Assembly: GCF_000014785.1 (NCBI RefSeq) | Contig: NC_008340.1 | Location: 1,800,001 to 1,832,000, forward strand | Direction of reading: 5' to 3' | Source of the DNA: Alkalilimnicola ehrlichii MLHE-1 | Lineage (GTDB): Bacteria; Pseudomonadota; Gammaproteobacteria; Nitrococcales; Halorhodospiraceae | Length of the DNA stretch: 32,000 bases | Shown: positions 1-5,075 of the stretch, one piece after another | How positions within the stretch are numbered: the stretch's first letter is position 1 | How the letters are laid out: each line of letters starts with the position of its first letter | The notes under the pieces: model-generated | What the model saw: the letters and a program-made list of their open reading frames with translations, nothing else | The model's database searches: none | Told to the model about the DNA's origin: nothing | Program-made: the position numbers and the translations under genes

Positions 1-933
1 ATCACCCAGGGCGGCCCAGTCCGCCGGGTCGGAGATGAAATCCACAATAACCCGGACCCGCTGCTCCTCCACCCCCAGGGCCGAAAACTTGGTGAAACCG
101 CTGGGCTCCACCCTTCGCACCACCCCGTCCAGGTCATCCCTCCCGCCCCAGCGCTGCAACGCAACCGCCATGCCCGGGCGGATGCGTACGGCATCGGCGG
201 AGAGCACCTCCACCTCCACCTCCAGCGCCTGCGGGTCCGCCAGCTCCAGGATCGGCTCGCCCGGCTGCACCACCCGCGCGCTCTCGAAATGGCGCGCCAG
301 CACCCGACCGCTGGCCGGTGCCTGGAGTTCGATGACCTCGGGGGTCTCCTCGTCCCGCTGCCCGGCAAACGCGAGCGCCAGTCGGGCCGCCTCCAGCTCC
401 GCCCGGGCGGCATTGACCCGGTGGCGCGCCGCGGCGACCGTGGCCTCGGCCTGCCGGGCCTGGGCCGCCGCCCGGTCCACGTCGTGCCGGGAGACCGCGC
501 CCCGCTCCCCGAGCCGGGACAGCCGCTCCTGTTCGCGGGCGGCGAAATCGGCACCGGCCCGGGCGGCCTGGTGCTCTTCGCCGGCCGTGGCCAGAGCCGC
601 CTCGGCAGCCTCAACACGGGCCTGCGCCTGCCGTTCGCTGCGCAGGTCGAGCGCCTGGGGCAACAACGGGTCGAGGCGTACCAGCACCTCCCCCGCCTGC
701 ACCGCATCGCCCACCTCCCACGCCACCCGGCGGGCGTGTGCCGGCACCGGGGCTGAGATGGCGTAGCGGTGCATGACCCGGGTCCGCCCCTCCTCCTCCA
801 CGGTCTGGTGCACGGCACCACGGCTCACCTCGGTGATATCCACCCAGACCGGCTGCGGCCGAAAGCCCAGGTAGAGCAGCAGGGCCGCCACCGCCAGGCC
901 GCCGATCCACACGGTCAGTCGCTTCCAATTCAT
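1..933 (-). CDS. HlyD-family periplasmic adaptor (membrane fusion protein); C-terminus lies beyond the window edge
   Basis: Absent from the ORF track because it has no stop in the window. My translation from ATG 933..931 gives MNWKRLTVWIGGLAVAALLLYLGFRPQPVWVDITEVSRGAVHQTVEEEGRTRV...GEVLVRLDP. An Ala/Arg/Glu-rich coiled-coil stretch follows (FAAREQERLSRLGERGAVSRHDVDRAAAQARQAEATVAAARHRVNAARAELEAARLAL), then ELQAPASGRVLARHFE...GEPILELAD. The order of N-terminal TM anchor, lipoyl-like half, coiled-coil hairpin and second lipoyl-like half is the MFP pattern. The frame stays open to base 1. The start lies 4 nt after the permease stop at 938. Confidence 0.8.
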   Translation of the reverse strand, partial: MNWKRLTVWIGGLAVAALLLYLGFRPQPVWVDITEVSRGAVHQTVEEEGRTRVMHRYAISAPVPAHARRVAWEVGDAVQAGEVLVRLDPLLPQALDLRSERQAQARVEAAEAALATAGEEHQAARAGADFAAREQERLSRLGERGAVSRHDVDRAAAQARQAEATVAAARHRVNAARAELEAARLALAFAGQRDEETPEVIELQAPASGRVLARHFESARVVQPGEPILELADPQALEVEVEVLSADAVRIRPGMAVALQRWGGRDDLDGVVRRVEPSGFTKFSALGVEEQRVRVIVDFISDPADWAALGD

Positions 934-937
934 GGCC

Positions 938-3307: not shown

Positions 3308-4371
3308 CAGTACGCCCCGGGATGACCGAAGGCCGCCTCCAGGGCAATGAACAGCCGCCGCTCGGTCCGGAAGTCATCCTCCCGGTCCCGCCGGAGCTGC
3401 GGACGGATCTCCAGACTGAGCCAGTCGCGATGGATCACCGAGCGCCAGCGCACCTGGGCGTAGTATTGGGTGAGCTGGTTATTCGGTTCGCTCTCGCCCC
3501 GGGCACCCACCTGCCAGATCAGCGCCCGGCGTTGGGAGAGCTGCTGGTAATAGGAGACCCGTTGGTCGTAGTAGAACTGCTCTTCCCGCTTAAACCAGGT
3601 GGCCCCCGCCTCCAGCCGCACGGCACTGCGCCCAGTGACCGGGTGGTCCAGGCGGATGTCGGTCGTGGTGCCCGCGCCCCGTCCGTCGTACCAGAACACC
3701 GCCTGGCGGGGACGGATCACCCACAGCCCCGGCTGAAAGGCGCGCCAGACCCGGGCCCGGGTGTAGAGGTCCACCGGGCTGCCGGAGCGCAGGCGGGCGT
3801 CCACCGACGTGGACCAGTTCTCGCTCGGGCGCAGGAAGAGCAACCCCGCGCTGGTGGTGCGGTCCTCGTCCAGGTCCCGCGGCACGCCCCGCTCGGCATC
3901 CACCTCGTCGTCATAGTCATCGCTGGTGATGATCAGGCTCAGGCGATCCTGGGCCCCGGGCAGGCGCAGACGGCCGGAGACCCCGGCCTCCAACCGGCTG
4001 TCACCCTCGGCGCTGAGGCGCTGCTCCAGGCGCAGCCGGGCCACCGAGTCGTACTCCTCGTCCGCGTAGAGTTCGTCATCGGTCCCCAGCATCCGGTCCA
4101 ACTGCCGGGAGAGCAGAAAGACCCCGCGGGCCACGGCGGCCTGGCCCCGATCCACCGGTCCGATCAGGGCGCGCTCCTCATCCTCCTCCGGATACCACTC
4201 CGTGGCGGGGTCATCGCGAACGTGGCGTTCCTCCCGCCGCCTGCTCTCGGCGGCCGCTTCCGCTTCGGCGGCCGCCTCGGGGTCGGCGCCCTCGGCAACC
4301 GCCGCGGCCGGCAGGCCGACCGCCAGTGCCAACCCGACCAGCAGGCGCCCGGCATAACGCACGCTCACCAT
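3307..4371 (-). CDS. Secreted protein of unknown family, probable outer-membrane beta-barrel, 354 aa
   Basis: It has an SPase-I type signal peptide ([28 protein letters not shown]) and no Cys. The N-terminal linker is acidic and low-complexity ([22 protein letters not shown]). About 250 aa of alternating hydrophobic/polar strand-like segments follow ([101 protein letters not shown]). The C-terminal residue is aromatic (..GAY). Its start overlaps the ATPase stop by 7 nt (ATGGTGA), and its stop overlaps the permease start. Confidence 0.6.
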
Positions 4372-5075
4372 ACCAACGCCTCCGGCGGCTCCGGTGCCGC
4401 GTTACGCTCCACGTTGCGGATCTCCCCATCGGCGAAGTGGACCACCCGGTGGGCCATACGGGCGATATCGGCGTTGTGGGTGATCACCGCCGTGGTGGTC
4501 CCGAAGGTCTGGTTGATGTCCATGAGCACGCGCAGGACGTTGATCCCGGTCTTCGAGTCCAGCGCCCCGGTGGGCTCGTCACAGAGCAGGACCCGGGGGC
4601 GCTTGGCGATGGCCCGGGCGATCGCCACCCGCTGCTGCTCGCCGCCTGAGAGCTGGGCGGGAAAGTGGTCCATGCGGGCCTCCAGGCCCACCCGGGCCAG
4701 CGCCTCCTCCGGCGTCATCGGGTCGCGCGCGATCTCGGTGACGATGGCCACGTTCTCACGCGCGGTGAGGCTGGGGATGAGGTTGTAGAACTGGAACACG
4801 AAGCCCACCACGTGGCGTCGGAACCGGGTCAGCTCCGCCTCACTGGCCCGCGCCAGGTCAAAACCCGCGCAACGCACGTGCCCGTCAGTGGGTCGGTCCA
4901 GCCCGCCCAGGATGTTCAGCAGCGTGGATTTGCCGCTGCCCGAGGGCCCCAGCAGCACCACGAACTCCCCCTCTTCCAGGGTCAGGTCCACCCCCCGCAG
5001 GGCATGGACCGATACCTCGCCCATACGGTAGACACGGGTCACTCCCTGGGCAAGGAACAACGGCTCTGCTGCCAT
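4365..5075 (-). CDS. ABC transporter ATP-binding protein (MacB/LolD/YbbA-like)
   Basis: Walker A is GPSGSGKST, the signature is LSGGEQQR, Walker B is [11 protein letters not shown], and the H-loop is ITHN. It is 236 aa long. A strong SD (AAGGAGG) sits upstream of the ATG at 5075. Confidence 0.93.

Follow-up and report, generated by a model that had tools for sequence, protein, structure and literature searches.

The window analyzed here is a stretch of 32,000 nucleotides (nt) from Alkalilimnicola ehrlichii MLHE-1 (contig NC_008340.1, positions 1,800,001 to 1,832,000), whose first 5,075 nt hold four genes: three for a predicted exporter of the ATP-binding cassette (ABC) type and, lodged among them, one for a hypothetical protein of 354 amino acids (aa). 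The reading we favor, and hold to be probably correct, is that of a TolC-dependent, MacB-type pump into whose operon a gene for a Sec-exported, arginine-lined outer-membrane barrel, assembled by the beta-barrel assembly machinery (BAM), has been inserted, the barrel being co-expressed with the pump because of where its gene landed. The barrel is probably a lineage-specific passenger or add-on and not the mark of a new kind of pump, and its co-expression would represent at most an accessory link, not an obligatory pump part. The four genes, together with a motif in the adaptor which bears on the argument, are as follows.

4365..5075, minus strand: ABC ATPase, 236 aa, MacB/LolD/DevA-like nucleotide-binding subunit (open reading frame (ORF); PF00005)
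3307..4371, minus strand: 354-aa hypothetical protein, predicted 14-stranded outer-membrane beta-barrel (ORF, AlphaFold2, Foldseek)
938..3307, minus strand: tandem MacB-type permease, 789 aa, two FtsX units (PF02687, hydropathy)
1..933, minus strand: HlyD-type periplasmic adaptor of the membrane fusion protein (MFP) class, 311 of about 399 aa visible, truncated by the window start
490..525, minus strand: RLS motif RLSRLGERGAVS, R137-x3-L141-x6-S148, located by regular expression in the alpha-helical region of the adaptor

The same-strand order of ATPase, 354-aa protein, permease and adaptor was read from the ORF listing and directly from the sequence, and both readings bear out the interlocking of the four genes reported in the original prediction. 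The ATPase stop and barrel start overlap by 7 nt (ATGGTGA, 4365-4371), the barrel stop and permease start have one base in common (TGATG, 3305-3309), and a 4-nt spacer (GGCC) lies between the permease stop and the adaptor start. A GGAGG occurs 9 nt 5' of the barrel ATG, within the 3' end of the ATPase gene, and an AGGAGG 6 nt 5' of the ATPase ATG. Scanning positions 1-9500 for promoters and terminators yielded nothing exceeding shuffled expectation, and the four genes are not split by an internal terminator.

This order, with the same overlaps, was found only in the Alkalilimnicola clade (loci L003-L005, L092 and L100-L101), which amounts to three other assemblies or metagenome lineages. Barrel identity to the MLHE-1 protein is 91% in L100/L101, 69% in L092 and 68% in L003-L005; in the last of these the ATPase, permease and adaptor are 90%, 86% and 76% identical, respectively. 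Permeases 45-59% identical to that of MLHE-1 were recovered from 80 loci in a scan of one genome per species, spanning the Acidobacteriota, Nitrospirota, Desulfobacterota, Planctomycetota, Gemmatimonadota, Balneolales (Fodinibius), Beta- and Gammaproteobacteria, and others. At these loci the ATPase, permease and adaptor genes are contiguous and tblastn detected the barrel in none; nor did a hidden Markov model (HMM) of 65 barrel family members, run against six-frame translations, find a barrel relative within 6 kb of any of the 80 permeases. The original prediction had cast the locus as an ABC exporter with its own barrel and had named conservation of the four-gene order beyond this genome as a test. 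The order proves to be carried by the Alkalilimnicola clade only: none of 67 homologous operons has it, nor do the other barrel contexts discussed below, and the idea of a conserved four-gene system is not sustained.

The junction between the ATPase and permease genes was measured at those 67 loci, where the ATPase end and the permease start are both visible. The gap is at most 30 nt in 55 of them, 31-120 nt in three, 121-450 nt in six and above 450 nt in three; gaps of 180-390 nt (L037, L047, L073, L079, L085 and L090) contained no convincing ORF. At a further locus (L030) the ATPase is seen only as a 3' end, which abuts the permease. Insert-free operons also occur in relatives that share a family or order with Alkalilimnicola, namely other Ectothiorhodospiraceae, Halofilum and Thiohalomonadaceae (L082, L089, L049), L030 being another such relative. 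From the clade-only occurrence of the four-gene order and the barrel-free state of the homologous operons, parsimony suggests that an operon of three genes already existed when the barrel gene entered it, in the ancestor of the Alkalilimnicola clade. Other genes appear at the same junction elsewhere: those for a PEP-CTERM protein, a DUF2202 protein and a LuxR-type regulator (L056, 1676-4554), for a DUF5625 lipoprotein (L078, 4631-6000), and for a small protein with a signal-like N-terminus (L091, 5165-6000). With inserts in three unrelated lineages, the ATPase-permease junction may be a place where genes for envelope proteins have landed repeatedly.

The adaptor points to the partner on which the pump would rely at the outer membrane. 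In MacA, AcrA and MexA, the RLS motif is situated at the tip of the alpha-hairpin and has been shown to bind the TolC aperture (PMC3391258). Residues 137-148 of the Alkalilimnicola adaptor, RLSRLGERGAVS, are an exact instance of RxxxLxxxxxxS; the helical sequence on either side, and not a structure model, suggests that the motif lies at the hairpin tip. Across 74 aligned adaptor homologues, among them members of operons linked to an outer-membrane efflux protein (OEP), the arginine is kept in 73, the leucine in 72, and serine or threonine in 64. Since the motif is retained just as in the OEP-linked homologues, the adaptor sequence bears no sign of adapting to a different partner. An OEP domain was present in five of 51 same-strand ORFs directly flanking homologous operons. 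In at least three cases, Fodinibius roseus (L070, 3837-5201) and two Gemmatimonadota (L072, 1664-3052; L080, 3991-5277), the OEP gene stands directly upstream of the ATPase gene (E 1e-50 to 1e-64); these loci constitute a four-gene OEP-ATPase-permease-adaptor version of the system. Judging from sequence, the outer-membrane partner of the Alkalilimnicola pump would be a TolC-family duct.

The ATPase matched ABC_tran (PF00005; E 3.8e-36), and its top NCBIfam matches were LolD, MacB, DevA and FtsE (E 1e-57 to 1e-60), all under the equivalog cut-offs. FtsX domain PF02687 was detected in two stretches of the permease (E 2.3e-29). Hydropathy predicts transmembrane (TM) helices at residues 24-42, 271-289, 320-338 and 365-383 in the first unit and at 433-451, 653-671, 704-722 and 754-772 in the second, with two large periplasmic domains at about residues 43-270 (~228 aa) and 452-652 (~201 aa); each unit is thus predicted to comprise four TM helices with a large domain between TM1 and TM2, the arrangement of Type VII systems. 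YbbP has a 4+2+4 arrangement with two extra linking TM helices (PMC5985334). Here, TM4 and TM5 are separated by only ~50 residues and a YbbP-like set of ten was not found. Because eight TM helices are predicted, against the 4+2+4 of YbbP, "MacB-type tandem permease" appears a more accurate label for the 789-aa protein than "YbbP-like". The earlier designation of the exporter as MacB/YbbP-like therefore stands as regards its MacB/Type VII parts and HlyD-family adaptor, while its YbbP-like half gives way to a predicted 4+4 topology. The adaptor matched HlyD_3 (E 2.9e-15) and RND_mfp (E 6e-20) and has a hydropathy-predicted N-terminal membrane anchor (residues 6-24, coordinates 862-918); full-length orthologues of 399 aa occur in L003 and L100. 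A phmmer search of the permease against PDB sequences gave no match at E≤0.01, so that the pump has no closely related solved structure to anchor it.

The 354-aa protein is 100% identical to the A. ehrlichii MLHE-1 hypothetical protein ABI56922.1 / WP_011629316.1. Its predicted parts, in order from the N-terminus, are listed here.

4294..4371, minus strand: putative Sec-type signal peptide, residues 1-26, AVA/EG cleavage site, no lipobox Cys (AxA rule, by eye)
4162..4293, minus strand: acidic Ala/Glu-rich low-complexity linker, residues 27-70 (sequence)
4090..4161, minus strand: conserved N-terminal helix preceding the barrel, residues 71-94 (both AlphaFold2 models)
3325..4044, minus strand: 14 antiparallel beta-strands, residues 110-349 (AlphaFold2 strand lists)

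The signal-like N-terminus, lack of Cys, acidic linker and aromatic C-terminus which had been described for this protein are all evident in its sequence. Hydropathy marks a hydrophobic N-terminal segment at residues 10-28, and the composition includes 47 Arg against a single Lys, zero Cys and a terminal Tyr. The acidic linker varies in length and sequence among homologues, with big indels in alignment A1. Towards the C-terminus, the last strand holds a nearly invariant F348, and most close homologues end in Y or F.

Assigning this protein to a described family was attempted by several routes, and the earlier statement that it could not be placed in one agrees with the outcome: searches against Pfam and NCBIfam returned no match, even at E≤1-10. 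Pfam searches with family members were equally unproductive, no credible match appearing among 12 members (E up to 10) or among 65 diverse ones (E up to 1). The profile of alignment A1 against PDB sequences gave a best E of 1.2, to an irrelevant match. With respect to OmpG and the general porin families, neither curated porin models nor solved porins gave a significant match, and PF02321, the TolC/OEP family, matched neither the protein nor any of the 65 family members. The protein is nonetheless far from solitary. Word-indexed homologue searching returned only 12-29 relatives, and a metagenome locus scan with the narrower family alignment A4 only four loci, whereas exhaustive searching of 1.84 billion cluster representatives with a family profile yielded 2,459 at E≤1e-3, of which 578 reached E≤1e-30. 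Almost all of those found are 300-400 aa long and align across the entire conserved region. The label "orphan" was dropped on the strength of these 2,459 representatives. No further copies of the barrel family were found in the window.

Selection on the barrel gene was estimated from the ratio of nonsynonymous to synonymous substitution rates (dN/dS). This is 0.14 relative to the closest orthologue (91% identity by BLASTP; 85% over the full codon alignment) and 0.26 relative to the 68%-identical orthologue, values which resemble those of the adaptor. GC content at third codon positions (GC3) is 0.876, equal to that of neighboring genes. The barrel ORF is a genuine gene under purifying selection; given this selection and its neighbor-like GC3, it is not a spurious ORF, nor did it arrive recently from a foreign source, and recent horizontal acquisition was rejected as an explanation.

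Structure prediction was carried out with AlphaFold2 on two alignments. With 12 sequences, the mean predicted local distance difference test score (pLDDT) was 72.5 and the predicted template modeling score (pTM) 0.64; with 65 sequences these rose to 86.4 and 0.76. Both runs agree on a topology of a signal-like helix at residues 3-19, an acidic region, a helix at residues 71-94 and 14 strands. In the 65-sequence model the strands have pLDDT values of 89-98 and helix 71-94 values of ~87-89, while the acidic linker is low to moderate. D92, in this helix, is invariant across 65 diverse members, and the close subfamily also conserves S88, R89 and G96; on the models, the helix could be a periplasmic helix or a plug. 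The strands alternate between a face rich in L, A, V and I and another holding 23 Arg, 14 acidic residues and further polar ones. All of the invariant strand arginines (R112, R114, R205, R220, R252, R308 and R310) fall on the polar face, which we take to line the lumen. F348 occupies a position in the final strand resembling that of a beta-signal.

Comparison of the models with the PDB using Foldseek gave matches consisting, as far as listed, entirely of membrane beta-barrels, nearly all of them outer-membrane porins or channels; a TolC-like fold was not among the matches listed. For the 65-sequence model the top match was OmpG, which has 14 strands (TM-score on target 0.56-0.67, ~8% identity). 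The generic in silico features of outer-membrane barrels are all present, namely a signal-like N-terminus, 14 amphipathic strands and a near-C-terminal aromatic residue resembling a beta-signal. TolC architecture is not, the model being all-beta after a single helix and having no periplasmic alpha-barrel. The 354-aa protein is thus confidently predicted by modeling to be a secreted, small, non-TolC outer-membrane beta-barrel. This is what had been surmised from its sequence: the ~250 aa of amphipathic, strand-like repeats resolve into 14 predicted strands (residues 110-349) with hydrophobic/polar alternation, the non-TolC barrel is supported by the AlphaFold2 model and by the barrels matched in Foldseek, and a soluble or non-barrel fold, which would have spoken against the proposal, was not what structure prediction returned. 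As conserved arginines line the inferred lumen, the protein most likely either lets anionic or polar solutes through as a small channel or has its lumen shut by salt bridges and the N-terminal helix.

Barrel relatives outside the Alkalilimnicola clade have unrelated genomic surroundings. In every such context examined, the barrel is found away from MacB-type ABC genes. Three barrels of ~50% identity (L006, L007 and L001) are encoded just downstream of lptF-lptG: in L006 (region 5823-8984) a 16-nt gap separates lptG from the barrel gene, both being on one strand, and in L001 (region 4622-9044) the barrel gene follows lptF-lptG with a DUF4382 gene intervening. The L006 arrangement suggests that the barrel is co-transcribed with lipopolysaccharide (LPS) export permease genes in that lineage. 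No lptFG was found at other barrel loci or in the window, and the adjacency is for this reason considered limited to the P0005/P0006 lineage. Elsewhere, the barrel gene adjoins an EamA gene near pagL (L008), stands beside a cyclopropane-fatty-acid-type cluster (L009), follows two PALP genes in a Nitrosomonadales genome (L102), or occurs alone (L010 and L093-L095). A distant subgroup with ~27% identity (L096-L099) has its barrel gene at positions ~6001-7100 (L096, L097 and L099) or 1306-2487 (L098), between OmpR-type regulators upstream and a gene for a ~970-aa Peptidase_M14 protein downstream. Genes for an MFP and a resistance-nodulation-division (RND) pump occur further upstream at three of these four loci (L096, L097 and L099).

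Known systems resemble the Alkalilimnicola operon in part. As in MacAB-TolC of E. coli, the units are of the FtsX type with four predicted TM helices and a TM1-TM2 periplasmic domain, and are accompanied by an ATPase with LolD and MacB among its best family matches (PMC5985334); a membrane-anchored HlyD-family adaptor carries an RLS motif in its alpha-helical region (PMC3391258); and the outer-membrane duct gene is mostly encoded elsewhere. In contrast to MacAB-TolC, the nucleotide-binding domain has a polypeptide of its own, a single protein of 789 aa and 8 predicted TM helices combines the two permease units, and the operon includes the extra barrel gene. A fused double-FtsX permease, a separate ATPase, Type VII membership and a dedicated genomic neighbor are shared with YbbAP-TesA of E. 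coli (PMC12646458); however, the permease here is predicted to have only eight TM helices, YbbAP works without an MFP adaptor, and TesA is a soluble periplasmic hydrolase and not a barrel. The strand number of 14 is that of OmpG, a monomeric E. coli porin, to which the barrel adds a conserved N-terminal helix, an acidic linker and an Arg-dominated inferred lumen, and with which it has no sequence-family relationship. Like TolC and other OEPs, the barrel is an outer-membrane component genetically linked to an ABC-MFP pump, but it is predicted to be a single-chain, 14-stranded barrel, unlike the trimeric 12-stranded barrel and alpha-tunnel of TolC. A parallel in gene arrangement is the dispersin exporter of enteroaggregative E. 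coli (aatPABCD), a MacB-like ABC system in which the gene for an outer-membrane protein lies between the permease and ATPase genes; by description, AatA is TolC-like, and gene order and accessory genes differ from those of the Alkalilimnicola operon.

Drawn together, the interpretation we prefer runs as follows. The three-gene module of ATPase, tandem 8-TM FtsX permease and anchored HlyD-family adaptor would work as a MacAB-like tripartite pump, its adaptor docking onto a duct of the TolC family whose gene lies at another place in the genome. The gene for a secreted protein would have become wedged between the ATPase and permease genes in an ancestor of the Alkalilimnicola clade and become translationally coupled on both sides. 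Its product would be exported by Sec and inserted by BAM as a monomer-sized, 14-stranded outer-membrane barrel following one conserved helix, and the arginine-lined barrel might pass anionic or polar solutes, with that helix perhaps serving as gate or plug.

Several considerations weigh against this interpretation. Firstly, translational coupling at both barrel junctions has been retained at a synonymous divergence (dS) of ~0.7-0.85, and retention in mid-operon implies stoichiometric co-expression with the pump. Such coupling is at least as compatible with a functional link as with a neutral passenger, and leaves real room for such a link. Secondly, some 11 independent barrel contexts were inspected out of 2,459 clusters. 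Thirdly, assignment of the polar face to the lumen rests on sequence periodicity and not on model coordinates.

If such a functional link exists, the barrel may have been recruited for the substrate or pathway of the pump, acting beside a TolC-dependent pump and outside its conduit. It might then be a channel through which an anionic compound is released or taken up again, or an outer-membrane factor connected with lipids or LPS. The co-expression implied by the overlaps and by the Shine-Dalgarno sequence inside the ATPase 3' end is in keeping with this, as are the conserved arginines of the inferred lumen and the occurrence of relatives near envelope exporters and lipid A genes, namely lptG (L006), pagL (L008) and the RND pump (L096, L097 and L099). 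These neighborhood associations are, however, few and heterogeneous, and several homologues have no transport genes nearby; we regard accessory recruitment of this kind as possible but unlikely.

A closer involvement, in which the barrel is a genuine component recruited by the MacB-type pump as substrate acceptor or exit site, beside or instead of the TolC duct, strikes us as distinctly improbable. The specific form in which a dedicated barrel replaces or complements TolC as the exit site, receiving substrate from the adaptor or permease, is one to which we give a slim chance. It draws on the overlapping start and stop codons with the ATPase and permease genes, kept in three diverged genomes, on adaptor-like purifying selection, on the predicted outer-membrane location, and on the visible part of the operon having no TolC-family gene. 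Type VII ABC systems do have dedicated partners, including EnvC, LolA, MacA-TolC and TesA (PMC12646458), and in the Type VII/MacB literature examined none described is a beta-barrel. Against a dedicated partner, the order is absent from the 67 homologous operons and the other barrel contexts examined, and the adaptor RLS motif is unchanged relative to OEP-carrying operons. Moreover, the model has no periplasmic alpha-barrel, its one helix and disordered linker present no obvious surface for tip-to-tip docking, and a monomeric barrel of 14 strands is narrow for a duct. The suggestion of an undescribed variant of the mechanotransmission ABC machines with its own outer-membrane partner consequently goes unsupported, considering the clade-only order, the retained RLS motif and the OEP genes of some homologues.

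That the 354-aa protein is cargo, as was also proposed, or a soluble periplasmic partner of the permease in the manner of TesA (YbbAP) or EnvC (FtsEX), is scarcely credible and was rejected: dedicated periplasmic partners are frequent in Type VII ABC systems (PMC12646458), and PEP-CTERM (L056) and DUF5625 lipoprotein (L078) genes occupy the same junction, but the confident model of a closed barrel with a lipid-facing hydrophobic belt and beta-signal-like F348 indicates an integral protein inserted by BAM, which moreover has its own predicted Sec signal peptide.

Other features surround the operon. A 710-aa S9-family peptidase ORF (5112-7244, minus strand) ends 36 nt upstream of the ATPase start and is itself abutted by an ORF (7245-9032, minus strand) corresponding to an AMP-binding, acyl-CoA-synthetase-like gene. 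The same pair precedes the operon in L003-L005, where it matches Pfam families PF02897/PF00326 and PF00501, and it is absent from the common neighbors of homologous operons; in the Alkalilimnicola lineage, these two genes may belong to one transcription unit with those of the pump. In close relatives, a multi-PAS sensor gene is located downstream of the full-length adaptor gene (L003, 12745-16246; L100, 5896-7623), followed in L003 by an MshEN/T2SSE ATPase gene, a region which in MLHE-1 lies beyond the window start. The sole RNA gene detected in the window is a transfer RNA, tRNA-Ser (anticodon TGA; 26410-26497, plus strand), an Rfam scan of the window giving no further matches at gathering score. 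Local GC content dips to 0.64 at 11001-12000 and to 0.60 at 16001-17000, against a background of ~0.70.

The observations extend beyond this locus in two respects. The barrel family comprises ~2,500 clusters at 50% identity, among which no member is characterized, and neither Pfam nor NCBIfam has a model for it; defining it would fill an annotation gap, and, being large and uncurated, it is a candidate for a new Pfam/DUF entry. The pump belongs to a widespread, uncharacterized group of Type VII ABC systems, with a tandem 8-TM FtsX permease and an MFP adaptor, that reaches from the Acidobacteriota to the Gammaproteobacteria. Should the barrel be a recruited pump component, the lptFG, pagL and RND-pump neighbors of its relatives would hint at a family-wide role in the export of anionic lipids or glycolipids. 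If it cooperates with the pump, the operon would be a rare natural instance of a non-TolC outer-membrane protein recruited at the operon level, and a handle on the functions of both; if it does not, this is an ordinary lineage-specific gene insertion. A lineage-specific operon insertion such as this could offer a natural clue to the function of the barrel family or of the pump.

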